This document shows positions 17,275-62,600 of a DNA stretch of 64,000 bases, piece after piece. Source of the stretch: Lama guanicoe (Eukaryota). The notes under the pieces were generated by a model. The model was not told where the DNA came from. It searched no databases and saw only the letters and a list, made by a program, of their open reading frames with translations. The stretch is taken from contig MU053881.1 of the NCBI GenBank assembly GCA_013239625.1, positions 3,102,001 through 3,166,000 of the forward strand, given 5' to 3'. Position numbers and translations under genes: made by a program. Position 1 is the first letter of the stretch. The number at the start of each line of letters is the position of its first letter.

Positions 17275-17323
17275 AAGTGGAAAACGAAACCCTCAAGACA
17301 GCATCTGTTTTGATAGCTTTATT
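17275..17323 (-). terminator. HRH2: Polyadenylation signal with downstream GU/U-rich element
   Basis: Minus strand reads AATAAAgctatcaaaacagatgctgtcttgagggtttcgtttt. Confidence 0.7.
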
Positions 17324-19957
17324 GGAACACGCCGGTGACACGCAACACGGATTTGGGGGCCCACCGCAGACGCTCCTCTTCTAGCAGCATGCGCCCCACT
17401 TCTGCAGCCAGTCGGGGCTTCAGGAGGCCTCCAGGAAGGCGGGGCAGGGCTCAGAGACAGACCTGAAGGAGGTCCCTGCCGTGGCAGGTGGCACGCAGGA
17501 ATCCTGACCTCTGCCCTGACCTGCTGAGCGTGATCAGCCAGACCAGTCTTGTGCTCTAACTACTTGGCCATGACTTGGAGAGCTACCTAAGAGTCTCAGA
17601 CTCTTAGGAAAACTTCCAAGGAGGGGATTCTGGAGTTTCGGGAAGGAATTAAGCCAAGAGACTGAGCATCTCTGGGGAGGTTATGGGGGCAAATCGTGCC
17701 TTCAGGTGTATGCTGGCAGATAAGCTGCTTAAAGCTCCTACTCTGTAGACTGAACAGTCTTCCAGGGGCTAGACAAAGGTCAACAGATACAGGCAGGACT
17801 CACAACCTCCTGAGCTGGGGAGACAGACAGGGCAGGAATCACACAGATGACTATAAATGACAGCCATGCCCATGGCTCTGAAGACGGCTCTGGGGATGTG
17901 TGTGGGGAGGCCTGACCCAACAGGGAGGGTCAAGGACGGCTCCCTCAAGAAGTGATGGTTCAGCTGAGATCCCATGGCAGAAAGGGCAGGATGAGCATTC
18001 CAAGGCATGGAAAGAGCTCTACGTGTGGCCTGGCTGCTGGAGGGAGCGGGGAAGTAAACAAACCAAAGGAGAAGGCCAGCAGGGTGGGGTGAAGAGACGG
18101 AGGGGGTGCGGGGCCGGCGGAGGCTGGAGGGACACGTCGGGCCGACCACGCGGGACCTGTGGGCCACGTGGAAGATGGGTTTCTCCCTGGGTTTGCACCG
18201 CACAGCCCACTGCGGCTGCTGGGTGGAGACCGGACGGGAAAGAGGCCAGTGAGGAGCACAGGGAGGTGTCACAAAGCTGTTTGAATTGTCCTGACGGAGG
18301 GGATGGCAGTGGGACCGAGTGATGACAGAGCAGCCGGAAAGAACCAGGTAAACGGTGGGTACTCGTGAGAGCTTGGACTCGAGAGGATGGATCATGAGGA
18401 GCCAGGAGAAGGGCGATGACCCAGTGGCAGGGCTTCGGTCTGAGGAGTGGGACCTCAGGAGAGGAGCAGGTGCAGGGAGATGGTCAAGCTGCAGCTGTGG
18501 ACCTGCTAACAGTGAGGTCGAGAGTGGGTCGAACGCGTCCCAAAGGAGCCTGGGCTCCAGGTACAGATCTGAGTCACCTCCGGAGAGGTGTCTCCTGTAA
18601 CTTCAGATGCTGGAGTGTAGACGAGGCCACAGAGGGCAAGAAGTGGCAGTGAGAGGACCAGGCTCAGGACCGAGCCTCGGAACGGCCGCATCGATGGCTG
18701 GGGAGAGGAGGTGGGCGGCAAGAGCCACTGAAGAGGTACAGGTGGGCGGGGAGGGGGCCACCACGAGGGGGTCTTGGAACCAAGGGAAGAGTGGACTCAG
18801 CGAGGGGCAGTGGTCGACAAGGGGAGCCCATGGACACCCTCATGTCTCCGGGGCTGTCATCTCCTCCACCTCCTTGGGTCTCTCCACCACCCCTGTAGAT
18901 AGGAAAAGGGAGCGCACACGCTCCCACAGAGGAATAAAGAGCTGCTCAGGGGCGCTCCCTGCCGCGCCCAATGTCACGCATCCAGCAGAGGGCGCTGGGG
19001 GGCCAACCTCCCCACCCACATCTGTCGTGCCCCCTTCCCGCTGCCACCTGTCCCTCCCTGCTGCCCGCACACTTTCCCCAGCAGGCCTGCCCCACGCCAC
19101 TCCTTGTGGATGGAAAGCACCAGAGAGGATCTGTACTGCAGCATGAAGGGACCCTCCCAGCCCCAGGCTCCGGGTCTGGGCGGTGAGAGCGAGAGGGTCA
19201 CCTGAGTCAAGGAAATATCGTGGCCTCTCTTGAGAGGCAATTTTAATGTCGTGTCAAGAGCATGGGCTTGAAGCCTGGTTTTCCACCCATCATCCTGTTT
19301 GTCCATTTCTTCGTTCGTTCGTTCCTTCCTTCAACAACAGTTTCTCAAGTGCCTCCCTCGTGCCAGGCACACTTCTAGCTGAGTGGCCTTAGGGACGGCC
19401 CCGTATTTCTCTGAGCCTCAGTTTCCCTATAAAGTGATCCCTGCCTCACATGGTAAGGACTATGTGTGCTCATGCAGAGGGCGTACCTGGCACACGGCAG
19501 GTGTTCATTAAAGGCTAATGCCTTCCTTTGCCTCCCCCTCCCATCCTCCCCTTCATCATCCCACAGAACTCGGGAGGGAGTGAGAGGCTAACGCTTTATG
19601 GCAACACCCTCGGCTGTGCTCAGAGGGCACGTGTGCTCCTGCGCATGCACGTCCGAGCACACGCCCGTGCACACAACCCCGAAAGCCCCGCGTCTCTGTT
19701 CATGACCCAGGGCCAGCACCAATGTGAGCTCTGAACCCGCGGGATTCAGCAGACCTGGGGAGGGGAGGCTGAGCGCAGAACAGGCGGCTGCTCCACCCCG
19801 GGCCGGAGGACCCCGTAGCCGGTCGTGTGCTCTGGGAGTCCCCGGACTCAGGCCAGGGTGTGTCCTCCATGGTTTTGGGGGCTGTTGGGTCCTTGGTGGC
19901 TCCAGGAGTCAAATGTTGGTGACCAGGAGCAGTAAGTTCAGTGTCCTGGGGCCGAGG
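17298..19957 (-). other. HRH2: 3' UTR of the long HRH2 isoform (~2.7 kb; end approximate)
   Basis: Runs from the stop to the first canonical minus-strand AATAAA I found (17323-17318). A weaker ATTAAA lies at ~19242-19247. Confidence 0.65.
17770..18840 (-). mobile_element. Degraded L2 within the HRH2 3' UTR
   Basis: L2-like motifs (ggagggtcaaggacggctccctcaagaagtgatg; gagcattccaaggc; ggctccaggtacagatctgagtca). Confidence 0.6.
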
Positions 19958-20126
19958 CTAGACAGCCTCGGAAGGCAGCGTTCTCGGGGGCTCCTTGGAC
20001 AGCGGCTCCCCCAGCTGCTCTTCCGAGGGGCCTCCCACATGTCTCTGGAGGAACCTAATCCCCCACAGGCTCTTGCAGCAGCTCAGAAGGTTGCTTGAGC
20101 ACGTGGTGCAGGACAGCGCCAGCCTC
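19958..20126 (-). CDS. HRH2: HRH2 terminal coding exon of the long isoform; adds RLALSCTTCSSNLLSCCKSLWGIRFLQRHVGGPSEEQLGEPLSKEPPRTLPSEAV (55 aa, total 414 aa)
   Basis: Acceptor tgtttgtgtctccgcAG|G (AG at 20128-20127). Phase matches the donor GAC AG|GTAACT at 38861/38860. The peptide closely resembles the recalled C-terminus of the long human HRH2 isoform (ALSCTTCSSNLLSCCKSLWG...RTLPSEAV). Confidence 0.88.
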
Positions 20127-21979
20127 CTGCGGAGACACAAACACAGGTCAGGGCTGGGGTGACCACTGAGCAAGGCCCTGGGAAAGGTGCGGTGGGATGG
20201 GACAGGGGACCATCCACGTGCATTAAGGACTTCTTCCCTCACCCCACAAGGGGAGTATTTGGGAGATGCTTTTAAATCCCTAGTCAACTTCTAACATGCT
20301 GTGTGCCCTTGGTCAAGTTACTTAACCTCTCTGATCCTTAAATAGAGGTAAAAATAACCACCCTTCCAATTCTTAAGAGGATTAAGTTTATAAGATATGT
20401 GTAAAAGTATCCCACACATTGCCTGGCTCATAGTAGGAGCCCAATTAACATTTGCTATTTCTGAGTCTTAATGAAACGATTCCTGAACATCTACATCGTG
20501 TTTCGCATCAGCTGGGGGAAGGCTGGGAGAAGACGATACAAAGATTTATTCAGCCCCGCATTAATACCAGTTGTGAACACGCCTGTCTCGCCCTGAGAAG
20601 GTGTGGTCCCTGAAGACATGGCACTTGCCTTTCAAACCCCTACCATGTGGCCGGCACATAGTAGGTCCTCAAGTTAATGGCTGTTGAGTCAATCTGCTTG
20701 AAGGTCACTAAAGGTAAGTTAGCCAAACGCCCAGTGTTTGACATATATTTTCAGAGAGATGAAGTTCCCTCCCACTTCTAAGTATACAAAATTCTCTGCC
20801 CTGTTGCCTCTGCTTAAGATGTGGATGGTTGACCTGCCTTCCTGTTCTACTACTTTCAGTGAGTGAGGGTTCTTTTATTGTTTTTTTTTTTTCTCAAGCC
20901 TTTCTGAGGTCAGAGGGAAAGGCAGCGTGGCGCGCCTGTGTTTTCAGCATCCAGCACGCAGTTCTGCCTTAATATCTGGGAGTGGGAGCAGGCTCAGAGC
21001 TCTAATCAGGCAATGGGATCTGACCAGACTTGGGTGGCATTGCTTTGTGTCAGTGTATCTGTGTTCAGAAGTGTTTTCCATTTGCCATGAGTGATACTGC
21101 ATTTCCATTTATGGGGATGATACAAAGTTTTCTTATAAATGTATTTCAGTGAAAACAGCCAGGTGGTGTAGAGATTTAAGCGCACAGAATGCAAATGGAT
21201 TGCATGGGGAACGGGGTTTGCAAGCAGCTGTAGCTTGGGAAGTGTTTGTGGTGAGCCCCGCCCATTCCCGCTCACCGTTGCCGCAAAGCGGGAAAAGCTG
21301 AGCACCGCCTGCTGTCCCTGGGCACTCTGCCCCAGGTCACCTCCAAGACAGGACAAAATCTGGCTTCAGTTCTAAGACCACAGACGCTACCTAGTCTCGA
21401 CTGGAGTGGTAGCTTTCCTCTTCCAGCTTCAAGAGAGGAGCCACCCCTCACGTGGTCCTGAGACCCATCGCGGGTCCTCTGGGTGTCGCATGAAGCTCGT
21501 GCTTGGCCTCTGCTCATCTGCTAAGGTCATCTGGCCACCAGAAGACTCAAGCTTGTTTCTCCATGGAGAGAGGAAAGAGCCTGTGCTTCCCCTGAAGAGT
21601 CCATCAGATGGGAGATGCAGATTTGGGTGCCTGACTTTGTCGGCCTTTGTGAACAAGGACACAGCCAGCAGCCACAGCCAATGCTGAAGCGTGGGACGTT
21701 CTGGCTGAGCCAATGCTCCCCCTGTGGGTTTGGCCAGCGCCTCCCTCCCCAGAACCCCCACCCTCACCTGGACCTCAAGGTCGCAGCCCGGGCACGTCAG
21801 AGGCTCCGGTCCTTCTCCGTGCCAGCAGTGTACATATTTGACTGAGCAGGCAGGTAGCTACCCTTGGATTGTCACTCCAGATTGAAGTCTGATAAAATGA
21901 CTTGCGCTGAAATTAGTGAAATTAGTGAAGAAAAGCTAGCCCTAGGCTAGGAAATAACGACTTCCCTTCTTCTAAAAAT

Positions 21980-23500
21980 CACTTGAAATAATATTATGGA
22001 AGTATCACATGTGCATAGTACAAAATTCAGAACATACAGACCAACGAAACAAAGAAAATAAACATCTCAGGTACACCCCCTTCTCAGACATCTCTCTGCT
22101 ACATGTCGATGCTGTCATTAAATATTTTTAAATGAAAGACATCAGAGAGACTACATCAAAAACCACATATGCGTGGCTTAAAATACTAAAGAATATGAAT
22201 GGTCACCAGTGTAACCACCTCTAGGTTAAGAAACAGAATTTACCAGGATCGGACTTGTTTCAGCAAATATGTATGTGTCCCTAAACAATTTATTGTATTA
22301 TTCTGCCTGGGTTTTATTTTTATATAAATGGGCTCATGTTTTAAGATTTTTTCCCCCTGTAGCTTCCTTGTTTTAGTTGCTGATTCACATTATGTTTTTG
22401 AGATTAAACTGTGTTGATGCATGTATCTGCAGCTCACGTTCGTTGACATAAAGTGCTCTACCACGGAAGGTACTCCAATTTATTTATCCGTTCACCGGTT
22501 GATGGACACTGAGTTGTTTCTCATTTTTATCATCTCCCTTCTCATGTTTATATTTGAATCTACACTATTCTGGTCTCATCATATAAATAGGAGTGTTTTC
22601 CCTTTTTCTCTCCTTTGAAGGATTTTGTGGAGGACTGGAGGGATCTGTTCCTTGAGCGTTTGGTAGAACTCGTTGGCAGAACCCAGCAGCACTGGTGCTT
22701 CATCCATTTTATTTATTTTGAATGGTTGTAGGACCCTTTAGGTTTTCTGTTTCTTCCCAAGTCAGTTTTGGCAAGTTCCACTTTGCTAGGCATTTGTTGA
22801 CTGCATCTGAGTTTTCCCTTGTTTTTGGCATAAAACTGATCACAATGTTCTTATATCTTTCTTAATTGCTGCAAAATCTGTATTAATATTCCCTTTCATT
22901 CTTAATACTGTTTGTTTATGATGTTAATGATTAATTACTCTTTGTAGTTCTGTCAATTATACTTCATCAGTTTTACTTTTTGAAGCAAGTTTATTTGGTA
23001 CATACAAGTTTAGAATTTTTCCGGTGAATTGAGTCTTTTTTTGAAAATATGGTGGCCAGCTTTATTTTCAGCAATACTTTTTGCTTACAGTTCACTTTGT
23101 CTGCTATTAATATAGCTACTTAGATTTCTTTTGGTTGGCATTTGTCCAGAATGTTTTATTTTTCTTTCCTTATACTTTCAACATTTTTGTTTCCTTAAGT
23201 CTGGCTCTTGTAAAAATACTTCTTTGGATTTAAAACATCAAATCTAACCATCTGCATTAAAAAAATTGATCAGCTTATCCGACCTACAGGTACAGTGATT
23301 ACCAATATATGTTGACTAATTTCTTCAGCGTGATCCTGTGTTTTATATTTGACCCATCTTTTATAAAATTCCCCTCTGTCTTTTCTTGCTCTGTTTTAAA
23401 CTGCCTTTTCTCTCATTTTCTTTCCTTCTTACCATATGGAATGTCAATCCCTTTATAAAAATTTTTTACCATGCATATTTAACTTAATAACGTCCACAGG
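21980..23500 (-). mobile_element. Cluster of ancient L1M/L1ME fragments
   Basis: Very T-rich, with L1 antisense motifs (ttccttgagcgtttggtagaactc; ttggtacatacaagtttagaatt; ctgctattaatatagctac). Confidence 0.7.
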
Positions 23501-23779
23501 CATGAAGCCCTTCCTCCTTTTCTTAGCTTGCCATCCATGCCAAGTGTACGTTGGGTTGAGACACTAAGCTGGATTCCCACACTCAGTAGAATCTATTACA
23601 TTACACACATTTAGGGATACTAGTAGGTTCAATATTCCTTGACTCCCTTCATGGCCCTATGGCTCATCTTGTCCCTGAGCCCTGACACTTAAGGCTAGGA
23701 GGTGTTAATGGGGCTCCAAGAGAGCACGTAATAGTGTCTGTCACTCAGTAAGTGCTTATGGTAAACATCTCATTTCCAC

Positions 23780-24257
23780 CCTCCCATCATCAACCCCCCT
23801 TCTCTGAGTAATAGCACCTTGACTTTTCTTGGGGATCCAAAGTTCCCCACTCTTTGTCTGTGTGGGTGAAGTGGGGTTGACCTCTTATTCACTGGCCTGC
23901 CTCTGGGTCTGGGTACAGAGGCAGACACATGACCCAATCCAGCCAATCAAACTTAAGCCTGGAATTTTCTGTTGGAACAGGAAGAGAGGGATGTATTTTC
24001 CATGAGGGCTGCTAAGACGGTAAGATGTGCTGCTGGTGGCACCACGGCAAGACTAACTGAAAATGAAGGCAACACAGGGTGAAACTGAGTTGAAAACTGG
24101 AGAAAGACAAATTTATGATGGCATCTGAGCACTTGAATCCAGCTTAAAGCTACACTTAGTTTCTTCAATTCTATAAGCCAATTCTGTACCTCCACCAAGC
24201 CCAGACTCTTTTAACTGGGTTTTTACTACTGACCGTTAACACTGTCCTGACTAACAA
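23780..24257 (+). mobile_element. Old MLT1 (J/K-like) LTR
   Basis: cacatgacccaatccagccaatca; end actgggtttttactact...gtcctgactaaca. Confidence 0.7.
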
Positions 24258-24310
24258 CATTCCTAAATAAATGTTCTTTGAATCTGAATCTCAGTCTTTC
24301 CACAGGGGGA

Positions 24311-24342
24311 TGCTATTATATGATCAGCCACCAGGGGTCAGG
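24311..24342 (+). promoter_or_regulatory. CTCF motif with possible upstream module
   Basis: TGCTATTA-tatgatc-AGCCACCAGGGGTCAG. Confidence 0.5.
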
Positions 24343-24479
24343 ACCCAGTTTCAGCGCTACTCTGTAAGAGAAGCCCTGCTCAGGTCCTCTCTGAACCCTG
24401 GTTTTCTCATCCGTGAAATATATGAATAACAGCTACCTCACGGGACTACACAGTGACTGCCAGTGCCCTTTTCCATCAC

Positions 24480-24866
24480 CCTCTATGGCTTATGGTACAA
24501 ATGATCACACAGAATCACCACAGCACATTACTCGGCTGTTTCTTGTATCTGCACCTTTCCACGTGTCATTCCCATTGTTTGAATTCCTTTATTTTCTTCT
24601 TTGCTGTGCAACATTACTTCCATCTCAAGGTTCCGTTCAGGCATCCCCTCCTCTGGGCAGCTATCTCTGAGGTCTCCCAGGGTTACTGATTCTCTCCCGG
24701 CTCCCACAGCCCCTCTGCTGAGGCACTTACTTCCTTGGATTAACCATCAATTTACCTGTCTGTCTGTCTCCCAGACTAAAGGCAGGAGTTGGATCTTTCC
24801 TCACCCACCCCACCATCCAACTTTATAGCAGGTGTTCAATAGTGTGTATGAGCTAATGAATGAACA
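24480..24866 (+). mobile_element. L2 3' end
   Basis: Pyrimidine-rich body ending atagcaggtgttcaatag...aatgaatgaa. Confidence 0.65.
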
Positions 24867-25138
24867 ACCCAGTACGTCTCAATGTAGATCGTGATTCTCC
24901 CATCTTCCAACTTCCCAAGCTCACAGATCATCGGAAGCAGAAGCACTTTCCTGGGCTGCTGAGCAGCCCTTACCCCATGTGTGGTGTCTCATTCTGGCTT
25001 TATTTCTATATTTACCTTCCCACTGCTACTAGCCCCAAAGAGCCTCGTGGGCAGTAACTGCAGAACAGTGAGGGATGTTTACCACTTCAGCCAATACCTC
25101 CTGAGCACCAGCCCTGTGCTAGGATGATTGGGACAAAG

Positions 25139-25637
25139 TCTAACAGGGAAGAACAAATATGACTTCATATTGGAGCTGTTCCTTTTAATTTAACCTTTGT
25201 ATCCTATTGCTTCTGTTACAAGTTAAGAATGTTGCCTATGTCCTGAAATACACAGGATGTCCCATTCTCAAAGCTCTGACCTTTAAAGGTACAACTCTTT
25301 TCCATAAATATAGAGATAAAGAGTTGCAGAACAGAAAATAATGTTTGTCTTATTGGAAATTTACAGGAACATCATGACCTGACCTATCTGAGCAGCTGCA
25401 AGAACAAAGGATTCTGACACCAAGAAGTTTGCAACAACCAACCACATCCCCTCCCCTTTTAGTATAAAAGAAGCCTGAATTTTTAATTCGGGGAAGATGG
25501 TTCTTTGGGACACCAGTCCACCATCTTCTTGGTCTGCTGGCTTTCTGAATAAAGTCACTATTCCTTGCCCCAATAACTTGTCTCTCTATTTATTGGCCTG
25601 TCCTGTGGAGAGCAGTGCAAGCTTGGACTCAGTAACA
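25139..25637 (+). mobile_element. ERV1 solo LTR (MER41-like)
   Basis: t(c)taacagggaa...cagtaaca termini, TATAAAA at 25463, AATAAA at ~25548, flanks aaag/aaaa. Confidence 0.8.
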
Positions 25638-26250
25638 AAAAATGTGGGATTTGGAACCAGGAGTCCTGTGCTCAGCTTGAGGCTCCCTCGCTCCCCTGCT
25701 GTTGGGTCTCAGACAACTCCGCCTCCCTACAGAATCCCACTTCCTCATCTGACAAATGGTCATGAGCCAGGTTCAAAGTTGTGGAAGCCGTGAAAAGAGA
25801 CAGGAGGAAGTGAAATGTTTAGAGATTCCAGAAGATTCTCCTCCGCTCCCTCCCCCTCTGTTTCCCACAATGGGTACAGCCATTAACTTGAGGAACTCTG
25901 TATTGAAGTCGTGGCTTATCGCTGAACCCGGGCCCTCGCGAATCCCACAGCCAACCACCTGGGAGGACCGCCACCCCCCAGATGGGCAGTTTCTCTGACA
26001 TCCTGGAAACTGGGTCACTGTTCTGCTCTCCTTTTTGAGGAAAGGGAAGTGGAGACGCTTAGAAAGGGGAAGTGGCTCTCTAGTGCCCTGGGAGCCAGAC
26101 AGAAGCCACCACGTGTTATCACCTTCCCTTCAGCTTTTGCCAAAATCAGGGTTGAGTGTCTTCTAATTTCCAGCTGTCGTAAAATAAGCTACGAGGTGGA
26201 AATTTCAGGATGCCAAGTTACCTATAGCCCACTCTTGGGAGCGCTATCTT

Positions 26251-26689
26251 TGTAACTAAACAGGACCCTAGGGACAGACCCCTCCCCCATACCCTCTGCT
26301 GGAGCTCCTATCTGACGTACCCAGATGCCAGTATCTGATGCCTATTTCCTGAGCTTTTCAGCTGCTGAAACCACCAGGGAATGAAAGGAAGAAATGAACT
26401 ACTCGATGATCATGAGCACGTGGCCCCCAGACTTTCTGGCGCCTAAGGATTGATCACCATCAACCAATCAGAGAACTGTGCACTAGCCAATCACATACCC
26501 CGGGAGACCCCTCCATCACTTTGCTTTCAAAAATGCTTTGCCGAAACCCTTCAGGAAGTTCGGGTGTTTTGAGCAGGAGCCACCCATTCTCCTTGCTTGG
26601 CCCTGCAATAAACCTTTTTCTGCTCCAAATGCTGTTTCAGTTTGTTTGGCCTCAGGTGCATCAAGCACACACACTTACATTCAGTAACC
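26251..26689 (+). mobile_element. ERV1 solo LTR, copy A
   Basis: Start tgtaactaaacaggaccct, CCAAT boxes, AATAAA at ~26608; homologous to 46071-46492; flanks tctt/tcat. Confidence 0.85.
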
Positions 26690-27624
26690 TCATCACAGAA
26701 GTTTGTTTTCTACCACAAACTAGTATTAACCTAGAACTTGGCTCAAATGACCAAACTTCTGCCCTCTGCTCATGAGAAAAGTGATCTTTTCGTGGCCTTC
26801 TCATAATTTTCTGGAAGTAAACACAGAAGGTTTGCCAGCACCAGCGTCTGCTTTGAAGTGTGGAGGGCCAGGGCAAGATGATGGGCGCCCAATTGTAAGT
26901 CCATAGATGGAGCGCTCCTTCTGTCCTTCAAGCTTCAAGAGCAAGGCAAAGACTTCCTGAAGGAGCTTTGCAAAAACAAAGTTCACTTTCATGCCAAATA
27001 AGGTGAAATGTATCCAAGAAAGGCACCCTCAGAGCCCCCTGGGACTTGGTTAATAGGTGACAGCCACAAACAATTGTCCTGTTTTGTTTTTTCCTCCTGG
27101 CATGGGAAAGAGATGGTGAGGGTCAGGGTTTAGGCTCCTGAAAGGGATCTTTACTAGGAGCCTCCCAGGGCACACACCCCGGAACACTGGTGGGTCACAA
27201 CCTGGGACCACAACCCAGAGCTCGAAGGGAGGCTTGTCTGTGACTCCAGCAGTCCCGTGGGGCCTGGCAAAGAACTGGCATCTGTGAATTGTACTGAATG
27301 AAGAGCAACTGATTGACAAGGGAGAATTTACTGAGCGCTTATGCGTGGGGTTGTTCGGCATCCTTTTTCTAGTTAGTTGCACTCTAAAGCAAGTGCAGGG
27401 GTCCCATTTCACAGACCAGGAAACTGAGGCTCAGGGCGAGTAAGTGATGCCCCTGGGTCACTCAGTAACAAAGCTCAAATGTGAATCCACAGCTGACTCC
27501 GAGGTCTGCTCCCCTCTCATGGCAGCATGCTCCTTCCTGGGAGCCAGGCTAAATGAATACAACAGAGCAGGACTGAGGGCTAATAGTCAGGGCCGGGTAG
27601 CTGGTCTCAAGTAGCTCAGGGTAT

Positions 27625-27659
<35 letters not shown>
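27625..27659. repeat. (TG)n microsatellite
   Basis: Direct observation. Confidence 0.95.
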
Positions 27660-27661
<2 letters not shown>

Positions 27662-30600
27662 CACCCAAGATTGTGTGTGCCAGTGCCTGAGTGTGCATGG
27701 GGTTGTGTGCATCTGAGTGTCAGTGGGTGTGCATGGGGAGGACTGAGTGGTGCAGAAGCCATTGCTCATTTTATCGGTCATACATATTTTAAATGCTTCA
27801 TGACCAAGATGGCAGAATAATAACATGATGAAAGCCATCATGGGTAGGGTGCTTAACACTGAACTTCCACACTATCCATGTGACACGGATGATGGACTTC
27901 TGATACTCTTATTTCCAATGAATGAGGAAGTCTGAGCCCAGAGAACTTGAGTCACTTGCCCAGGAACTCACAGCAAATAAGTGGTGGGGTCTTGAAAGGC
28001 CCGAGCCTGGCCCACCTGCAGAGACGGAGATTCCCTGCCTGCCTTCCCTGTCCAATACACGTGGAATCTGGGTCATGCTCAGATGCCCCCAGTCCCAAGG
28101 AGATCCTGCGCTCGCTGCTCCCACCCTCCAGGAACCTCCACTGGAGACTAGCTGGCTCGCGCAATCCTCTCCCTGAGACTCTGGAATGTCGTTTTAAAAC
28201 CAAAGGCAACCCCATAGCTCCTGCCAACTCACACGAGTTGGTACTCATGGGAAAAGAACCCACATACTGGAGGCAACTCTCAAAGTCACTTCCCATCACT
28301 CATTCCATCCCACACACGGGAGGCAGGCAAAGGGTCATGCCCATTTCATAGATGAGAAATTGAGGGTCAAAGACTGCCATTTGCCCCAGGTCATCCTGGT
28401 CTGGCACTGTATCCTGGGCTCAGGGCCTGGCATCCCCAGACTGGTCCTTTTGATTTGAGACTTAATTTGCTCTGTAGTCTCTGAACAGCTCATGCCCTGG
28501 ATGGGGGCTCGCCTCTCCGAGGGTTAGTCCTCAGCCCCATCAAAGGCTCTTCTCCCCTCTTCCCTGCCCCTCTGTCCATCCTTAAATGCCAGGGACCCTT
28601 TCTCCTTGACTATACCCTCTGCCTTGATCAGCCCCCCTCACGACACTTCCAGGACCCTCCCCCGGTGTGGCTCCCAGGAAGTGGTGCCTTCAGATGTGGC
28701 TGGCGTCCTCAGAGCCCGTCCAGCCAATCTAACAAACAATTAAGCAACTTGTAACAAAAAGTCTAAAATATCCCTCCCCTTTCACCAGTCATTCTCGTTC
28801 TAGAAATTCAGTTTTTACGGACATAATCTGAAAGAAACAAAATGTTCTCCACATGGAGATGTTCATCACAAGGTTGCTGAAAATAGCCAAAATAATGTGG
28901 AGACAAGGGCACAAGACAACAATAGGGGAGCATCGCAGTCAATCTTGAGGCTCCCCATGCACCCCCTCCCCCACCAGTGAACCGCCAGGGGCTGCTATTC
29001 AGACACTCCAAAGTCACCATGCTGACAACTGGAAGTGACTGCGATCCCCTGACGTTTTCCCGCCATCCGTGAAATGGTGGCCTGTGGGCGCCCAGAGCAG
29101 AATGAAACAAAGACCTGACACCCGAGCACCTGAGTGGATTCAGCCCTGTGCCCTGAGCTTCCACCCCAGCACAGGCGTTAATGCCCTTGGCCCTCTCCCC
29201 TGCCCTGGGAGGGAGGGGCTGGAATGATCAATCCTACTTTGCAGATGGTGACAAAGTTTTAGAAAAGGAAGTACCTGCCCACGGTCGGCTGGCCAACAAA
29301 ATGGGGAGGTCAGCCCCCAGGGTTCTCTCAACAGACCACGGCCACCACTGCCTGTGGGTCCCTCCTCTCCCTCCTCGCCTCCCCCACCTCCAGTGTCCAC
29401 ACAGGCTACTCCTCTGCTGAGAATGGTGCCTCCAACCTCTGCCCTTTGGCTTAGAAAATTCCTGCTTGTCCCTCCAGAGTCAGCTGAGACATCACCCCTT
29501 CAATGAGGCTTTGGGTTCATCCCCTCCCTGCTCATCCGACAGCTCCATTAGCGGCCCCCTCCACGCCTGCTCCCACCTCCCGCCGGGAAGTGGCGCTAAG
29601 GGATGAATGAATGAATGAATCAGTAGGACTCAGCAGCTCCTGAAACAGAGACCTGCTGAGGAACTCCACGTGTGGATGCTCTGGTTGCTATGATATTAAG
29701 ACCACATCTGCTCACGAGAGACAGAAAGGGCAGGCAGAGCGTGCCTTCAGGGGTCATGTGAGATGTAACAGGAATGGAGTTTCTCTTTGACATTCAATTT
29801 TAATGCTCCATTTCAATGCTAATAAAATCCTTATAAATTTTCTGCATTTCCCAAGTCAGTGAGGAAAGGACAAGTTCCTGGAACCCTCTGGGCACCCGGC
29901 ACCACCCTGCCGCCCACCCGGAGTATCTGTCCCAGGGTGACAGTGACATGTGCTGGAATGAGGAAGGCCTGTGACTCATCCACAGACCAATGAGTCCTAA
30001 AACCTGCGGTCTTCCCCGAAGGCTGCACCCTCCTGTAAGATCAGATGTGGGCAAGGAGAGCCACCTGCCACTTTTTTGGCAGGTGGGACAAACTCCCCCT
30101 CCTCCCTGCCCATCTCTGGACAGGGAGCAAATGGTCCTCACACCCCAGGAGAGCCTCAGAGGGGCTGTAGACACCCTAAAATGCCCAGCAGGTCTCAGGC
30201 ACACCCCATCCCTGTCCCCTGACAAAGCCACAAAGAGCCACTATAGGTTTAATGAACACACAGCATCACCCCAAAACAGAGAGCCCTGTGACTCACTGAC
30301 GTTTTCCCGGGAGCAGCACCGGCTGCTAGAAGCTTTAGCTCTCTCTGACAGATGAGGAAACGGGGGCTCAGAGAGGGACGTGCTCTTCTCAAGGCCACAC
30401 AGCCAGCCAGGGCAGAGGCAGTGAGAAACCAGGGTCCCCCGTCTCCCAGAAGCCCCGTCCTGCACCCAGCCGGCACCCCCGTCTGCCCGTGGCCCCGGCG
30501 CACAAAGCTCAGGCTGCGACAAGGACCGTTTCACTGAATCTGCCTTCGCCCTCGGAGAGATTTCATTAGTCTGAAAAACACGTTCCTTCTTGCCCTTGGC

Positions 30601-30831
30601 AGAAGATTCTCGACACAAACACAGTGGAGGGTTTGGCCCAGCTGCTCTCTCTTGTTAAGTATTTACGTGTGATTAGTGTTGGAATGGATCCCTGAGACAG
30701 CCCCCATTTTCAGGAGGGACACGAGGCTCAGGGTTAAGGCCTGAGTTGAACAACTCAGTGGCACAACTGATACACACGTCCACAAAGTCTGCCCTGGGCT
30801 TCTCAGCTGCTCCTTTACAGTGGGGCCACAG

Positions 30832-30903
30832 GGGAAAAAAGAGAGAAAGAAAAAAAGAAAGGAAGAGAGGAAAAAAGGAAGAGAGGAAGGAAGGAAGGAA
30901 GGG
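30832..30903. repeat. GA-rich / (GGAA)n low-complexity tract
   Basis: Direct observation. Confidence 0.9.
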
Positions 30904-30934
30904 ACTACCACTTACAAGCATCTACCTTGTATCA

Positions 30935-31092
30935 GGCGCTTTGCAAAAGTCGATGCTAAGCCTCATCCAGTCCTCCCAGGGAGATATTTGTATCCTCATT
31001 TTGCAGACAAGCAAGCTGAGGCTCAGAGAGGGCAAGTCACCTGCCCAAAGTCACAGAGCCAGCAAGTGCCAGGCAGGCCAGGAATTGACACC
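30935..31092 (-). mobile_element. MIR SINE (representative; similar cores near 27410, 30350, 36330, 37500, 45900, 48790, 49550, 50860, 61060)
   Basis: Core atcctcattttgcagacaagcaagctgaggctcagagagggcaagtcacctgcccaaagtcacag. Confidence 0.8.
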
Positions 31093-31110
31093 CTTTTCTT
31101 TCCCCTGCAC

Positions 31111-31421
31111 CAGGAGTTGGCAGACTAGATGGCCTGTGGGCCAAATCCAGCCCACCATCTATTTTGTAGAAATGGTTGGGGGAAAAAGAAAAAAAACGAA
31201 TAGCAGAATAACATTTTGTGACTCGCAAAAATGACATGGAATTCACATTTTGGTGCCCATAAAGAAAGTTTGACTGCAAACCAGCCAGCCCCATCCATTT
31301 CTGTATTGTCTGCGACGACTTCCGGGCTGCACCAGCAGGGTTAAGCAGTGGGGACTGAGAACATAACAGAGACTAATGTATTTGCTCTCTGGCCCTCGGC
31401 CGGAGGCTTGCCGAGCCCTGC
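31111..31421. mobile_element. MER58-like hAT-Charlie MITE
   Basis: TIR-like caggagttggcagact...gcttgccgagccctg; internal ggcctgtgggccaaatccagccc. Confidence 0.8.
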
Positions 31422-32361
31422 CCTACGCCGGGCCGTCTCCTGTGAGCCAGGTAGGTTTGCGGGGCCTCCCCGCGGCTGTGCAGGCTATTCTCTGCACCCA
31501 CGGTCTCAGGGCTGATATCCAAACCTCCTCCTGCTTGCAGGGCTGAGCGCCCCGGGGCTGGGTCCCCTGGAGAAGGGGCTTTCTCCTAATGTGTTCACCC
31601 AGAGTGTTCACCTTTCTCTTATGGGTACAGAGCTACTAGCAGGGGCCCCGAAGGCACGCGACCCCTTCCCTCCCCATCACAGCCCTGGGGAAGCAGCCCC
31701 GCGGCAGACCTGTCAGATGTGCGGCAGAAGGAACCGGAAGGGAAGGAAGGGAAAGGGCAGGGGTCTGTGCAGAGCCAGAGGGACGGAGGGGCATGGCCGG
31801 GCACCAGCGGGGGCCTCCAGCCGGCTTCAAAGGCACAGGCACCAGGGCGGAGGGGAATGAGGGGTTCTCTACCTTTCAAGTGACTCCTGGGGGGGCCACG
31901 ATTTATTCTCCTTGACTTTTGAGGCTGGAAAAGGCTTCCCACCTCCTCTCTCCCTGACTTCCTCTCCTGGGCTGGGAGGGGGTCTCATTCCCCAAACTCT
32001 CTGAAGAGACAGAAGATGAAAAGGATTAATTCCTCGCTGTAGCCCATCTGCTCTGCCCGCGGTGGTGCCGGAGTGCGGGCCCCGCAGGAGCTGCGAACGG
32101 GTGCTCGGAACCCATCGGAGCCGACCAGGCGGGAGGGACGTGGACCGCCTGGGGGTCCGGGATGCAGCCTCCCGCCTGGAACTCCTCACCCAGGGCCTCC
32201 CGACGGCCAAGAGCTGCCAGAAATCCCAAGCACACGGTGAAGGAGCCTGGGGGGAGGGGAAAGGGAAGCGGAGAGGGAGAGACAGCCGGAGGGAAAGAAG
32301 ACACAAGACAGAGGGGGAGAAAGCAAGGAAGGAAGAAGAGGCAGAAAATAAAGAAAGAACT

Positions 32362-32675
32362 GGGAAAACATTACGCTAAGTGGAATAGCCAGCCGCAAAA
32401 GCCCAAGGGTCATCTGAGATGTCCAGAAGAGGCAAGTCTACAGAGATAGAAAGCAGATTAGTGGCTGTCTGGGGAATGCAGGCTTGGGAGGAGACAGCTG
32501 AAAGCTACAGTGGAAGCTACAGCATTTCTCCGGGGGTGATGAAAATGTTCTAAACGGACTGTGGTGGTGGCTGCACGACTCCGTGAGTATTCTAAAAACC
32601 TGTGACTTGTACACTTGAAAAGAATGATGCACAGAGCATGTGAAGGGCATCTCAGTACACCTGTTACATAAAAGA
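32362..32675 (+). mobile_element. Old L1M 3' end fragment
   Basis: aaaacattacgctaagtgga...gaaagcagattagtggctg...gggtgatgaaaatgttctaaa. Confidence 0.85.
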
Positions 32676-33753
32676 AAGAACATGACAGAAAAGAGACAAA
32701 ATGAGAAGAAAGTGAAAGAGAAAGAGAGGGGTGGCTGAGAAGGAAGGGTCACGTCCGTTCCAGTCCCTGCTACGTGCCAGGAGCTGTGCTCAGTGCCCGC
32801 CTCCTTTACTCTGGTGTTATTTTGACCGCTCTGCAAGGGAGGTCTGATAATTATCATAGTTCTCTAGGTAAGGAAACTGCAGCTCAGACTATCCGTGGCC
32901 TGTCTAACATCACCCAACCCCTTACTAGTGGTGGGGCCAGGATTCAAACACCGGGCTCCCCAACTTCCCCACGGGAGCAGGAGAACCCCCCAGGAGCCTT
33001 GAGGTGTGACCTCCAGGTACAGAGGGCAGAGGGGACAAGCAGCAGCCAGCAGGAGGCCAGCGTGCAGGGGGCAGCCAGGGTCCTGGGTGGGAGGTGCGGT
33101 GGGGGCAGCGGCTCCAGGCGCCTCTGCAAAGAGTCCTTGTTAAGTAAGACCCGTTCAGAAATCCCGGAATCCATGAGCCACAAAGTTAGACTATTTTAGA
33201 GCCCAAATGATGCAAGCAAAAAAGTTGGGGCTCTTGAAGGACTAAATTATGCAAAACTTTCTTTCTGAGCAACAGCTCCTTCTTAAGAAGTATGTGTACA
33301 TCGTCGATCATGCAAATTTTTGTCTCCTCAGCCAGAAGAAATTGAACTTAGAGCAAAAGATAAGGCCAGCCCCAACCTCCCCCTGGGGCCTCCCACCGCT
33401 GGCCAACCCAGGGCACGGTGGGCTGGAGCCACAGAGGACCGCATCCCAGCTGCCTGAACTCTGGATTTGCATCCGGGGATCCCTGCCCCTTTCCTGGGGG
33501 CGGGGGTAAGGGCGAGGCTCGCTCCACCTGCAGACGCTGTGATTCGGAGCTGCGGAGGCCGCTGTGAGGCCCGAGGCTGACACTGCGCTTTGGAGGGAGG
33601 CCTGGGGTGATGCCAAAGTTAGAAAAGGGAACCAGGGATTTCTGAGCTCCCAGGAGTTTCCTGGAACTCCTCTCTGGGAGACTCGTTTCTCTGATCTCTA
33701 AAGGGGGGGTGGCGTGAGTCACTTCTTGGGGCTCTTGGGGACCTAGAACAAGA

Positions 33754-34170
33754 CATTCATTCATTCATTCATTCATTCACATATCCACTCAATGGATATT
33801 ACTGGGGCTCCAGGCAGAGTGTTAGGTGTTAAGCAGTGATGGACACAGACGTGGGCCTGCCCGCAGGGAGCTACGGTCTGGGGGAGTAGAACAGATGGGA
33901 GGGGCCGGGAGGGGGAAGAAGACTGTCCAGGCTGAGAGGAGGGTGCATGGGGTGGGACAAGTCATGGCCTGGGGAGAGGACCGAGGGGCCCAGACGGAGG
34001 GAGGGGGGGAGGGGGCAGGGAAGTGAGAAGAGTCGGGCAGGGCAGGACCTTGTGGGGCAGGGCAGAAGCCTGTTCCCATCTGGAGGAAATGGCCCCTCTG
34101 GCAGCAGAAGGAAGGAGGGCAGATGGAAGGGGCCTGGGAGTGCTGGCCAGAGGCCTGTGAGGGGAGAGAG
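33754..34170 (-). mobile_element. L2 3' end with (TCAT)n tail
   Basis: (cattcatt)n followed by L2-like sequence. Confidence 0.65.
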
Positions 34171-34900
34171 CTGACAGGACCTGGCAGGAGCGGGGCAGCT
34201 GTGGCTCCTCGCCTCCCTTTGGGGATCTGCTCCTGAGGGCTTTCCTGAGCTCTGACTCCAGCCTCCAGGCCCAGGGAGAATCACCACCGCGGGTGCCAGG
34301 GCTGCACAGGAGCAAGGAAGTGCCCCGCCCTGAGGGAGGCTGCTGACACTCCAGGTCCCCGGGAATCTTGTCTCCCTGCCTTGGGAGATTAGCAGGGCCA
34401 GCCAGGGTCTGGGAAAAGGACCCGAGAGGCCCAGGCAGGGATCCAGAGAGACGGGGTCTGCTCCTAGCCCCTGCCCAGCTTGCCGAGGGCCTCAGAGAGG
34501 TCACCTGCCTCAGTTTCCCCATCTGCGGGCTATGGGGTTAGCTCTGAGTCTGGGCTAAATTCAAGTCCGGCATGTCAGCATGGAACGAGCCTGGCTTCGG
34601 GGGCAGACGGGCTTGGGCTGCTTCCAGAAGCCCCGGCTGCTGGCCGGGGGCCCACATTTTGAGAACTACGGCCTTGGAATAACCTCCCTCAGGGACAAAG
34701 ACCCCTGCTTTGCTCACTGCTAGCCCCCCAAACAGCGCCGGCTTTGGGCAGGTCCTTGGTGAGTGCCAGTGAATGGAAGAACTCTGAGTGGCTTGTTTGG
34801 GTGGGGCTGGAGGGTGGGCGTGGGCCTGGGGATGGTGTCCGGAGGTGGTCAGGGACCAAATCATGAAGGGCCTCTAATGCCAGTTCAGGGAGCTGGGACC

Positions 34901-35540
34901 TGTGGGGGCTGAACATGGCCCCAGACACCCGCATCCTCATCGCTGGAAACTGGGAGTGTTACTTTATATGACGAAAAGGGCTTTGCAGATGTGGTTCTGT
35001 TAAGGAATCTGGGAGGGGGAGGTTATCCTGGAATATCCCAGAGGGCCCTGAACATAATGACAAGTGCCCTTATTAGATGAGGGAGGCAGAGGGAGGGTGT
35101 AGCTCAGTGGTACAGAATGTGCTTGGCACGCACAAGGTCCTGGGTTCAATCCCCAGTACCTCCATTTAAATAAATAAACCTAATTACCTCTCTCACCAGA
35201 AAAAGAAAACTGCAACTTTTTTTTAAAAAAGGGAAAGAAATTTTTAAAAAATTAAAAAAATAAATGAATAAAGAAGGAGGCAGAGGGAGACTTGGCTACA
35301 AAGGAGGGGATGGAGATGTGACCAAGAGGTGGGGGTGAGGCGAGGACAAGGCCACCAGCCAAGGAGTGAGGGTGGCCCCCGGCAGCCGGAAAAGCCAAGG
35401 AAATGGATTGTCCTCTGAAGCCTCGGGAACCAGCCCTACCAACACCTGGATCTCAGACCCCTGACCCCTTCGACTGTGAGGGTAGGAATCTGTGTTGTTT
35501 TCTGTCACCAAGTTCACGGTCATTGGTTACAGGAGCCCCA
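34901..35540 (+). mobile_element. MLT1 (C/D-like) LTR interrupted by a SINE
   Basis: tgtgggggctgaacatggcccc...ctttgcagatgtg...caacacctggatctcagac...ttggttacaggagcc. Confidence 0.85.
35091..35270 (+). mobile_element. tRNA-Ala-derived SINE (camelid vic-1-like)
   Basis: gggagggtgtagctcagtggta (A box)...gggttcaatccc (B box), aataaacctaattacctc, A-rich tail, TSD ggaggcaga. Confidence 0.9.
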
Positions 35541-37569
35541 CCTGGGAACCTAATGTAGACCTGTGTCTGGTGGAAGCTGTGGGCCTACTGAGCAGGGTCA
35601 GTGGAGCAGAGAGGGTGAGGCTGGCCACCTGGGATCAGAGAGGGGGAGATGTGACGGCCAGTCTGGGTCAGGGCAGGGCAGACAGAGCATCCTGCTGGCG
35701 GGAGGGCGTGGTGGGGCGGTGGCTGCTGACTGGCTTCCGGGAAGGGAGGACCAGCCAGCTCGGCCACTCTTTCCTGGGCTGACTGTCTCCCACCCGCCCC
35801 TCACCTACACCACCAGCAGCCAAGGGCAGGTAGAGTCCGTCCCTTGGAATTCTTGGCACAGGCAGACACCCCCGCCTCCTTGGTTGTGATAAGGGCTCTT
35901 TGTCAGGTCAATGCTGGCTTTTGTCCTCAGATGGGGAGCAGGAAGGACACACTATCGGTCATCAGGGGGGCTGGGAGCCAACCTTGTGGAGGCCACACGA
36001 GTCCCTGGGTGCCCTGGTGGCCTCCGTTGGAAAATCAACCTCTGGCTGTTCTTGGCTTCCTGGACCCCGACACCCACAACCATAGCATGAAGCCCTTCAG
36101 CTGGTTCCCCATGAGTCTCTGCCGAACCTCTCTGCTCTGCAGCTGCTGTGTGTGACCCAGGCAGGCACGGCCTCCCAGCTGGCCTTGCTGGTCAGGGTGG
36201 CCGTGACAGTCAGAGGAGCTGGAGGTCTGGCCCCCAGAGGGCAGTCGGTAGCGGGGGCTGCTATTTCTGTTTTTGCTCAGATCTTGGCTTTGGAAGAGTC
36301 ACTAGCATGTGTCCTTTGACCAATTTACTTAACTTCTCTGAGCCTCAGTCTCCCCATCTGCAAAGTGAAAACTAAGCAAGCAGCTACCTGACAAGGTGGT
36401 GCGGAGAATGAAACGGGGCCACGGGTCTAAGGGGTCCAGCACCACCCTGCAGGAACGAGTCTTTCCCAGCTGTATCTAAGGCTCAGCTCAGAGGTCTGCT
36501 CCCGGGGATGGGCTCTTTGGGGCATGCACGGCCTCCTCTGGGGACCTCAGGAACTGGGTTTCAAGCCTTGGCATATGCTGCACCAAACCATCACCAGTTT
36601 GCTCCTTAACCAGACCATCACCTCCACCTGTGAGCCACTGCAGGTGGTGAGAGTGATGGCGTGGGGCGGGGGGCTCGCTGTCTCTCCCTTTGCACCCAGC
36701 ACAGGGGTGGGTGAAGGATGCCGCCACAGAAAAATTAATACATAGAAACAGTGACAAACGTGAAACTGGCACCTAGTGGGTGCAGGTGAGTGCTTGCTGG
36801 ATGTCTCCCTAAGGATTAGGGGTCAAGGTGGCCTATTAACCTGAGGTCGCACAGGTAAGAGCGGTAGGAAGTGGTTTGACGACTAGACTGAATGTGTAAC
36901 TGCCTTCTGCAGAGCCCACACCCGCCGTGCTCTGCCCTTTGTTTGCTTTGTGAACAAAATTAGCTTTGTACCGGAGGCTGCTTCCTGAGTGAGGGAGCGT
37001 GGAAGGACAAGGTCATCTTAGCGATCAGGGCCAGACGCGGAAGCCTCCAGACAGGCGTTCTGGAGAGGCGCCTTTGGGTGACTTGGAGGGTGGACGTGAG
37101 GGAGACAGCCTAGAGGCTGGAAGGCCAGGAGGAGGCTGGATGCAGGAGCCATGAAGCTTGTTCCACAAGCATAGCAGTGGAGGGGGAGGGTCCGGGACCC
37201 AAGTCTACTGGGGACACTCCACACCTGGCCGATGGAAGGACCAGAGTTACTCGAGGCCTAGGGGACCATTTGGTCAGTTTTAGCCCCAAAGTGCTCCACA
37301 GGGACCGGCACCCAGAGCGGGTGGGTGTGCAGTGCCCATCCAAGCCTTTCTGGAGTCTGACGCTCAGTGCTCGACAGCAGACAAGTACCCCACTGCAGGT
37401 CCTAAAACCTGTTTGCATCCCCTGGCTCATGTGTACTTCAGGCGACTCTGGGAGGTGAGCCGGACAGGCTGCCTGAGGACAGGCCTCACCCTCTACGAGA
37501 TGAGGAAACTGAGGCCCAAGACGGGCAGGGACTCGCTCAAGCCACAGAGCGAGGAGGGCAGAGCTGAGA

Positions 37570-37783
37570 TCAGGGCTGGGCAGTTGCCTTTCCATCCCAG
37601 TGCACCACAGCAGATGCCGAAAACGTCACCTCTACATCCCTGGCACTCAGCACAGTTCCCGGCATGGGATGGGAAGCTGACAAATGAATCAGGGAATGAA
37701 TGAGTGAATAAATGAATGAATGAATGAGTGGGTTTGTCACACGGACCAGCATTCGGGGGGGGGGGAGGAGGCAAAGGCATGGT
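37570..37783 (-). other. Counterpart of an alternative, L2-derived HRH2 last exon; reading frame apparently not conserved
   Basis: Acceptor tttctcttcccacAG|A at 37785-37784. Peptide pieces PCLCL, ECWSV and THSFIHLF lie in three different frames. Confidence 0.55.
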
Positions 37784-38856
37784 CTGTGGGAAGAGAAAGG
37801 AAAGTAATATTGAACACCCGTATGTCTGCTGTCCTGCCAGCATCCTTTCATTTAGTCATCTCAACAGCTGGAGCTCCCTCCCACCTGTAACCCTCCTCCC
37901 CACGGGCGAGCTCCCTCGGGCCACTCAAGTCTTTGTTGAGGTTCCCCTTAATATTTTGCATGGGCTTTGTCACCAGTGAATTGATCTAAATCTCATTCTG
38001 ATCCTGTTTATCTTTTCAGCCTGGGTATCTCTTTGGAGGCTGAATCCTAGGGCATCGTCTCTCTTGCATTTCCTGCATCCTGGAGAGTCAATGGTCTCCA
38101 AGCCTTTTTGCCTGTTTGTTTTTTCAATAGCCTCCTAGATTTTGCTCTGTTCTCTCCTCTCTGCTCTCCTCTGTCATGGACCAGAGCTGCATTCCCCTTC
38201 ACTGACATCCTCATCTTACCCTTGTGGTTCACATCTTATGGGGCAACCAGAGCCCTCTTTCCAAGGCACAGAGCTGCCTGGGTTACCCCCTCCTTGCTTC
38301 TAATCCTCCCATCTTCCCCTAAGACCTAGGCTACAATGTCCAAGCCTGGCTTTCAAGGCTCTGCCTTCCTCCCCGCACTGGAGCACCCCCAAAGTAAGAG
38401 CTGATGCTCAATGAATGTGGGCCGAGTGGGGTCTCTGACTGAACCTGCAGGAGGCAGCATTAGTGCATGGCCATTGGAGGGCTGTCCTGGCCAGTTCAGA
38501 TGAACACTTAGGACCAGTAAGTAAGTGGCAGAGTTGAGTCTCAAAGTTAGGGTTCCTGACTGTAAGGACCAGGTAGCTAGAAAAAAGGGCCCACAAGTTC
38601 TGGAGTCGGGGGAACTCTAGTCACATCCCAGCTGTGCGGCCCTGGCCAAGTTCTCTGAGTCTGGACTTGCTTCTTTTAGAACGGAGCTAAAAAGTTCTGT
38701 TTGGGGGAAGGAACAACACGAGATTTGGAAAGCGCTCATGAGGCATTTCCAACCCATAATGTTCCAGCCAGCACCTCGGGGACAGCTGCCACTTGAGTGG
38801 CTTCCATGAGTGGGACCCCCTCGGGTCCCCAACCCACACACAAACAACCCTAGCAG

Positions 38857-39936
38857 TTACCTGTCTGTGGCTCCCTGGGGGGCCGCGACCTCTGTCCCAC
38901 TCCACACCTGGAGCCTCAGGGGCCTCTCTTCCTGCCACCCGGGTTCTTGGCTTTGATTCCTCTTCAGCCGAGAGCTGCTGTCCCTCAGCGAAGTTCTGTC
39001 GGCGATGTGGCCGGCGGGCCGGCAGCGGAAGAGGCGCTGGTACGCCGTGCGGAAGTCTCTGCTCAGCGTGGCGTACAGGATGGGGTTCAGGGCCGAGTTG
39101 GCATAGCCCAGCCACAGAACAATGGCTTCGAAGGTCTCGTTGATGGCATCATCCCCTCTCAGCCCACGGTAAACAAACACAGTGAAGTAGGGGAACCAGC
39201 AGACAATGAAGGCTCCCATGACGGCGGCCAGAGTCACTGTGGCTTTGTGCTCCCGGAGGGTGGCTGTCCTCCAGGAGTTGATATGATGGACCCTCTTGGC
39301 CTGATCCCGGGCGATCTTGAAGATGCGGTAGTAGGTGATGCACATGACCAGCAGGGGCAGGTAGAAGGTGACCAGCCCGTCCACCAGGCCGTACACCAAG
39401 TTGACCTGGACTTTGCACTTGGAGACGGTGTGATTGTTGTTGTTGGTCTCCGCCCTGCTGTTCCACCCCAGGTGGATAGACAGGAAGGACAGTGTGATGG
39501 AGATGACCCAAATTAAGACCAGGGAGATGGCGACCCGGAAAGGGGTCACCAGCACGGGGTAGCGCAGGGGGTCCGTGACGGCGCAGTACCGGTCCAGGCT
39601 GATCATGAAGAGGTTGAGGATGGAGGCCGTGCAGAGCATGACGTCCAGGCTGGTGTAGATATTGCAGAAGGCCTCGCCGAAGCCCCACTGGCACGACAGC
39701 TCGTGGAAGGCCGAGAAGGGCAGCACCAGCAGGCCGAGGAGCAGGTCAGTGATGGCCAGGGACACGATGAAGCAGTTGGTGAGACTCCGCAGCCGCCGGG
39801 TCAAGCCCACCGCCAGGCAGACGACCACGTTGCCGGCGATGGTGATGAGGATGAGGGCGGTGAGGACCAAGCTGACGGTGACCCTGAACGCGGTATGGTT
39901 CAGACAGGAGGAGGGGTCCGTGCTGTTGGACGCCAT
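38857..39936 (-). CDS. HRH2: Histamine H2 receptor, 359-aa unspliced-ORF isoform (class A aminergic GPCR)
   Basis: Intact 359-aa ORF with 7 hydrophobic segments, TM3 Asp (YTSLDVMLC), DRY, TM5 D..T (GLVDGLVTF), CWFP, NPILY and C-terminus [17 protein letters not shown] as recalled for human HRH2. Strong Kozak context (cccagcATGG). Confidence 0.99.
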
Positions 39937-62460: not shown

Positions 62461-62600
62461 TTCTCTCCCACAGTCTCCCACACTTTCTTTTTCTCTCTCC
62501 CGGACCTTCTTTCCCTCTCTCTCTCTGGCTCTGACACTTCCTCCTTCGTCTCTCTTTCGGTCACACTGCCTTCTCTTTCTCTCGCTTTCCCCGCCTCCCT
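62300..62600. repeat. Polypyrimidine/polypurine tract with two C20 runs
   Basis: C runs at 62370-62389 and 62397-62416. Confidence 0.9.

Follow-up and report, generated by a model that had tools for sequence, protein, structure and literature searches.

Acid-suppressing drugs target the histamine H2 receptor (H2R), product of the HRH2 gene; the receptor functions in the heart, the brain and immune cells. Its canonical form has 359 amino acids (aa; UniProt P25021). The closest parallels to the gene architecture described here come from two other G-protein-coupled receptors (GPCRs), as parallels of layout. The 5-HT4 receptor, Gs-coupled and aminergic like H2R, joins one shared splice donor to many last exons; according to the available text of PMC12090342, its variants are identical to Leu358 and then have Arg359 or Ser359, just as in HRH2, and its tails change PDZ binding and signalling (also PMC2644495, available text). 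MC1R (MC1R-001/MC1R-002) was long deemed intronless: its canonical form retains an intron, and splicing near the stop codon adds a 65-aa tail (PMC4676704, available text). We have analyzed HRH2 in a 64,000-nucleotide (nt) window of the Lama guanicoe genome (assembly GCA_013239625.1, contig MU053881.1, positions 3,102,001 to 3,166,000), to which all coordinates below refer; every feature discussed lies on the minus strand. A distal coding exon, 18.7 kb downstream of the canonical stop codon, extends the receptor to 414 residues and is almost certainly real and spliced. HRH2 differs from 5-HT4, whose variants are well characterized and several of which are kept, in that one exon dominates the conservation signal; it differs from MC1R, whose retained form is canonical and whose retained intron is short, in its 18.7-kb intron and in the strong constraint on its tail.

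The main coding exon (38861..39936) runs from Met1 to the first two bases of Arg359 and specifies the seven helices, helix 8, Cys305 and the proximal tail. Read without splicing, the open reading frame (ORF) 39936-38857 is that of the 359-aa receptor and terminates GAC AG|G TAA. The product is an HRH2 orthologue: it has the class A seven-helix domain (Pfam 7tm_1 matches residues 35-288 of the alpaca protein, E 2.5e-68), and its top matches are named HRH2. At the end of this exon lies a phase-2 splice donor, AG|GTAACT (38855..38862; exon end 38861, intron opening GTAACT). When it is left unspliced, intron bases +2 to +4 (38859-38857) read TAA and end the 359-aa form. The GT...AG intron spans 18,734 nt (20127..38860). 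Its 3' end (20127..20151) comprises a branch-point candidate, CTGAC at 20151, placed by consensus 25 nt upstream of the acceptor, a moderate pyrimidine tract and the acceptor AG ending at 20127, with no second AG for ~50 nt upstream. The last coding exon (19958..20126) supplies the G (20126) that completes Arg359 and then 55 codons, residues 360-414, before a TAG stop codon (19960-19958). The spliced coding sequence is 1,245 nt long, for a protein of 414 aa. The 55-aa tail contains four cysteines (Cys365, Cys368, Cys375 and Cys376), eight serines and three threonines, laid out as a conserved core (370-387), an acidic/proline spacer and one copy of an 8-residue unit. A 3' untranslated region (UTR) of ~2.65 kb follows (17300..19957, the cleavage site being approximate), with AATAAA at 17323-17318, 2,635 nt beyond the stop codon of the 414-aa form, and a GU/U-rich stretch downstream; the predicted mRNA measures ~4.4 kb plus exon 1. 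GT donor, pyrimidine tract, AG, branch point and poly(A) signal fit a U2-type terminal exon; the donor departs from consensus at +5 (C-T at +5/+6 versus G-T), and the acceptor is absent from the 36 of 2,097 AG sites that pass a crude filter of at least 13 pyrimidines. The original prediction, which had been made from the letters of the window, placed the stop codon within a GTAA donor, the acceptor at 20127, a 55-aa extension, the UTR and AATAAA exactly so, and all of these coordinates hold; so does its remark that the exon sits inside a TTG-started 109-aa ORF (20287-19958) of the ORF track.

An open frame is poor evidence for such an exon: 55 open codons in phase follow 262 of the 1,472 intron AG dinucleotides (18%), and the argument was rejected as explicable by chance. 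It is homology of the predicted peptide, not its openness, that is decisive. A homology search with the 55-aa peptide, the check proposed with the original prediction, matched 20 of 83 candidate proteins (E = 8.5e-28 to 1.9e-8), and the frame is conserved in other mammals. The best match is alpaca RefSeq XP_072803305.1 (414 aa, 98%, E 8.5e-28), in which the tail is joined at Arg359; over its entire length the window product differs from this record at 3 of 414 positions. The exon is then not hidden from annotation, as had been claimed: exon and protein are already there, and as a sequence finding this is a rediscovery. Three 414-aa alpaca RefSeq accessions carry the name without an isoform tag. 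The camelid cluster (all seven members) holds 414-aa proteins from alpaca, wild and Bactrian camel and dromedary, together with forms of 359, 363, 374 and 421 aa. Annotated long HRH2 proteins have 422 aa in orangutan, cat and dolphin, 423 in pig, 421 in hamster and 414 in alpaca and camels; they come from the same gene, junction and exon as the window product, and nothing about them is different in kind. An older alpaca model of 421 aa (XP_006199027.2) has a tail that changes frame after the acidic stretch and ends in frame 2 of the window, likely the consequence of an assembly indel.

Orthologous tails are found in primates, rodents, pika, carnivores, pangolin, bats, rhinoceros, pigs, ruminants, whales, elephant and manatee, and span the superorder-level groups of placentals with the exception of Xenarthra, from which none was retrieved. 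Among the proteins retrieved by tail searches, no tail record was returned for human, mouse or rat (named), for xenarthrans or for non-placentals. The 422-aa form is presumably the human reference transcript. A three-sequence tail profile run against 1.84 billion representatives produced six matches, five of them placental exon fragments and one a repetitive chance match (E 4.5e-4); long isoforms cluster with the receptor body, and such a search can show neither absence of the tail from marsupials or birds nor the age of the exon. Two tail fragments matched no Pfam family. The tail alignment bears out two further statements of the original prediction, that the tail is conserved across orders and that the camelid version is 8 aa shorter than the 63-aa tails of primates. 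The camelid tail opens with Arg, where most mammals have Lys, and is without one 8-residue unit. At the tail end (19984-19958) most mammals have a tandem pair of these units; just one is present in camelids, Molossus, Myotis and squirrels. In caprines and hippo the frame runs beyond the usual tail stop, and in cattle it stops early.

That body and tail are joined in RNA is suggested by 13 proteins whose sole source is Logan, a set of sequencing-run assemblies, and in which a single frame spans both, on contigs of 2,018-4,570 nt; one pig body-plus-tail protein occurs on 20 contigs, each of at most 4,531 nt. Contigs of this length are too short to hold an intron of this size, and body-plus-tail proteins on them therefore point to spliced RNA, with the proviso that the intron length is that of the window and the contigs are from other species. 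Their lengths suit the predicted ~4.4-kb mRNA plus exon 1. In the camelid cluster, a Logan source is given for the two 414-aa camel proteins only. In pig, 423-aa sequences are on 109 contigs versus 67 for 360-aa sequences, and the short form alone can derive from plain DNA. The contigs offer good, if indirect, support for splicing. A search across sequencing runs listed no RNA-labelled run carrying the sequence, an outcome that speaks neither for nor against splicing.

Conservation of the tail was gauged on an alignment of the window product with 32 long forms (n = 33), about one per lineage, drawn from 84 tail-bearing proteins. Residues 370-387 average 0.91 in column identity, the same as the transmembrane core (0.91); the exon-2 tail averages 0.75 and the later spacer 0.72. 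Leu373, Cys375, Lys377, Leu379 and Trp380 are invariant (33/33), as is Cys305 in the receptor body; Cys376 is kept in 32/33, Cys368 in 31/33 and Cys365 in 24/33, being absent in ruminants, and manatee retains the Cys375/376 pair only. Selection thus appears to be centered on the cysteine pair in its hydrophobic and basic setting and on the amphipathic stretch that follows. It is barely credible that the exon is instead conserved for an RNA-level reason, such as a splicing or UTR element to which the peptide is incidental, or that its spread is an annotation echo copied between genomes. Most named records are indeed computed models, and conservation was measured on proteins alone; against this, length changes keep the frame (the shortened tails of camelids, bats and squirrels keep the same frame to the end), the spacing of Trp, Cys and Leu is invariant, and there are spliced proteins known from Logan only.

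Which of the two forms is the main one is a separate question. The original prediction had cast the coincidence of stop codon and donor as a special switch. The donor consensus is GTRAGT, and GTAA, GTAG and GTGA all give a stop codon at the start of a phase-2 intron. Because any phase-2 GTAA or GTGA donor reads as a stop by default, a stop at the unspliced donor is no sign of a switch, and that notion was rejected. On the minus strand neither AATAAA nor ATTAAA follows the 359 stop until 31907, 6.95 kb on, and the AATAAA there is the signal of another small last exon (see below). The available legend of Supplementary Fig. 13D of the TOGA2 preprint (10.64898/2026.06.30.735536) labels the single-exon HRH2 transcript truncated and a hominine exon lineage-specific; it does not name the exon that is kept, which we infer to be the distal exon studied here. 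What these observations suggest is that splicing to the exon 18.7 kb downstream would make the main HRH2 mRNA and the 414-residue receptor, and that the 359-aa form would be an unspliced or intron-polyadenylated product, ended by the stop codon built into the phase-2 GTAA donor. This reverses the original reading: it is the spliced form that likely predominates, and the long form is probably the major mRNA in most expressing tissues.

Several facts weigh against this assignment or in favor of its principal competitor, in which the long form exists but as a minor or tissue-restricted isoform, 359 aa remains the main form by way of non-canonical intronic polyadenylation, and donor and stop codon constitute a regulated switch. 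Variant hexamers lie 0.85-2.5 kb past the 359 stop (GATAAA at 38012, ACTAAA at 37856, AATGAA at 37852 and AGTAAA at 36329). Of 145 full-length proteins, in a set biased toward the tail by its queries, 143 could be classified; 17 of these are read-through forms, six of them unnamed Logan/ENA entries. The donor is off-consensus, and C-T at +5/+6 would suit regulated use. A review (PMC8720924) reports transcripts for 359 and 397 aa in human ventricle and describes their functional difference as unknown; MC1R behaves in just the way proposed (PMC4676704, available text), and residues 341-359 are conserved on their own (0.87). The evidence for the long form also has its limits: the splicing support consists of contigs from camels and other mammals rather than junction reads from this species, contig counts are not abundances or expression levels, and the 33 aligned proteins were chosen for their tail, many being homology-guided models, so that conservation is inflated and losses are invisible. 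The competitor in turn has to do without a canonical poly(A) signal for 6.95 kb, its read-through proteins may stem from DNA or pre-mRNA contigs, the three 414-aa alpaca accessions are named without an isoform tag, and TOGA2 has, in the available legend, "truncated" for the single-exon transcript. We consider it unlikely.

What the tail might do is suggested by its cysteines. The conserved Cys375/376 pair lies beside hydrophobic and basic residues, which is the setting of an acylation site and fits an S-acylated membrane anchor motif; Cys305 is itself said to be palmitoylated, with a role in surface targeting of H2R. Judging from this context, the pair is probably acylated. An anchor at the end of helix 8 is already part of H2R (PMC10901899). 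Residues 370-387 would fold into a short helix, hydrophobic at first and amphipathic thereafter, that lies along the inner leaflet and is held there by S-acylation; with the receptor tethered at this second point as well as at Cys305, residues 306-374 would become an additional intracellular loop. The second anchor would be expected to alter delivery to the surface, residence there and desensitization, and not histamine binding or Gs coupling, which lie in the unchanged first 305 residues. The hydrophobic moment of windows starting at 379-382 is 0.57-0.62 (0.67-0.73 for helix 8). It is low across the cysteines (0.14-0.39), which counts against the proposed helix. AlphaFold's helices at 372-379 and 382-386 have a predicted local confidence (pLDDT) of ~37-41 (mean 50.3), too low to count. 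The explanation as a whole, with the distal exon, the long form as main form and a tail tethered to the membrane by Cys375-Cys376, is on balance slightly favored. A bolder generalization, which we hold only tentatively, is that most placentals have as their native H2 receptor a protein of 414-423 residues whose tail is anchored a second time by lipid, the 359-residue form used for the published structures and truncation studies being its unspliced by-product.

Three functions had originally been suggested for the tail, and they fare unequally: the cysteine pair (33 and 32 of 33) is the best supported, the PDZ-binding end is weaker, and serine/threonine codes are not enriched. A class III PDZ ligand has the pattern E/D-X-hydrophobic (PMC2644495, available text), and the predicted window C-terminus, Glu-Ala-Val, conforms to it. 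A class III end is found in only 18/33 (terminal Val in 25/33, an acidic residue at -2 in 18/33). Cattle, buffalo, caprines, hippo, elephant, pangolin and one seal record have lost or lengthened this end but retain the cysteine core. Serine/threonine codes occur in 24/33 tails versus 26/33 exon-2 tails (the exon boundary is off in 3/33; corrected by eye, the tail count rises by one and the cysteine counts are unchanged), and as added sites for GPCR kinases (GRK) or arrestin they are no commoner than in the segment that the 359-aa form already has. That the tail is mainly a protein-binding module of either sort, its cysteines secondary, accordingly seems improbable from the sequences compared. 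It does draw some support from the terminal valine and acidic -2 residue, from the survival of the end through separate shortenings, from the Ser-x-Thr-x-x-Ser at the tail start in 21/33 and from the recruitment of PDZ proteins by 5-HT4 tails (PMC2644495, available text); loss of one tandem unit, however, keeps the end automatically. Much less probable still is that the four cysteines carry no lipid and instead coordinate zinc or link oligomers through disulfides. Their arrangement (C-x-x-C, then C-C) and their number, four or five in 25/33 tails, could be read in this way, but Cys365 is in 24/33 and absent in ruminants, manatee retains the pair only, the tail is without a Pfam family match, and adjacent cysteines flanked by Leu, Trp and Lys fit acylation better. 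A four-cysteine zinc site was rejected, its ligands not being invariant (Cys365 24/33, Cys368 31/33).

The canonical 359-aa receptor shares residues 1-359 with the long form, and with them the ligand pocket, the G-protein face and the helix-8 cysteine; it is without the tail of 55-63 residues. That classical work uses this form, as the original prediction stated, is borne out for structures: the sequences of all five PDB entries (8POK, 9IXJ, 8YUT, 8YN3 and 7UL3) match only residues 1-360, and 8POK is described, in the available text, as full-length. In its available portion the Concise Guide 2025/26 (PMC13242166) names significant splice variance for H3 only, and the available portion of a review of H3 isoforms (PMC11274711) is silent on H2 isoforms. 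The long form of the cardiac review (PMC8720924, available text) is the 397-aa isoform, not the distal-exon tail. No functional study of the distal-exon tail was found in a literature search that was thin on subscription papers; unlike the exon and the protein, the function of the tail seems unstudied. The distal exon is, then, real, annotated and less exotic in mechanism than had been held, and it exposes a gap between annotation and pharmacology: annotation carries the long form, yet the five structures, the pharmacology guide and the cardiac review use 359 aa or the lineage-specific 397. Should the long form prove to be the main protein and to carry a second anchor, then trafficking, desensitization and the response to H2 blockers will have been studied on a receptor that lacks a stretch conserved to the same degree as its transmembrane core; results on internalization, desensitization and drug tolerance would need rechecking, and isoform-level RNA-seq assigned against two-isoform annotations may be misassigned.

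Three further candidate last exons can be joined to the phase-2 donor of the main coding exon, a point on which the original prediction was silent; the long peptide that is conserved across orders comes from the distal exon (19958..20126) only. One candidate (37570..37783, acceptor 37784, with a CATT-rich repeat) is homologous at its start to the tail of human 397-aa isoform 1 (NP_001124527.1), which uses the same donor and a homologous acceptor but is encoded by an exon different from the distal one, CATT-rich and, by the available TOGA2 legend, lineage-specific. Here it would add 70 aa, diverging from the human tail after a few residues, and a tandem repeat occupies 37683-37730. Exons of this type are poorly conserved, their length and frame varying across species; annotated versions in peccary and takin end differently. 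A second last exon (31902..32000, acceptor 32001, its own AATAAA at 31907) adds four residues, EFGE, and corresponds to the annotated 363-aa form of the Bactrian camel. Tails of this type are in 8/143 records (Bactrian camel, goat, pig, lemur and elephant, with EFGK in two ground squirrels), and this exon, too, looks old from its distribution. The third candidate (21858..21906, acceptor 21907) would add 15 aa and corresponds to the annotated 374-aa Bactrian camel form. Species-specific tails make up 28 further records among the 143 classified.

Upstream of the coding region, a CpG island (62001..62500) with a donor-like site at 62130 likely marks the promoter and a non-coding exon 1, and an acceptor-like site at 40445, 508 nt before the ATG, is likely the start of exon 2, ~21.7 kb from exon 1. 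CpG-rich blocks within this first intron (43001-43500 and 47501-48000) may be alternative promoters. Codon 167 (39438-39436) specifies Asn here and Thr in the alpaca RefSeq protein, and Asn167 thereby removes one of the two N-glycosylation sequons of extracellular loop 2. Residues 341-359 (38916-38861), the last of the main coding exon, are unusually conserved (0.87 versus 0.68 for residues 306-340); a linear motif or an exonic splicing element may account for this.

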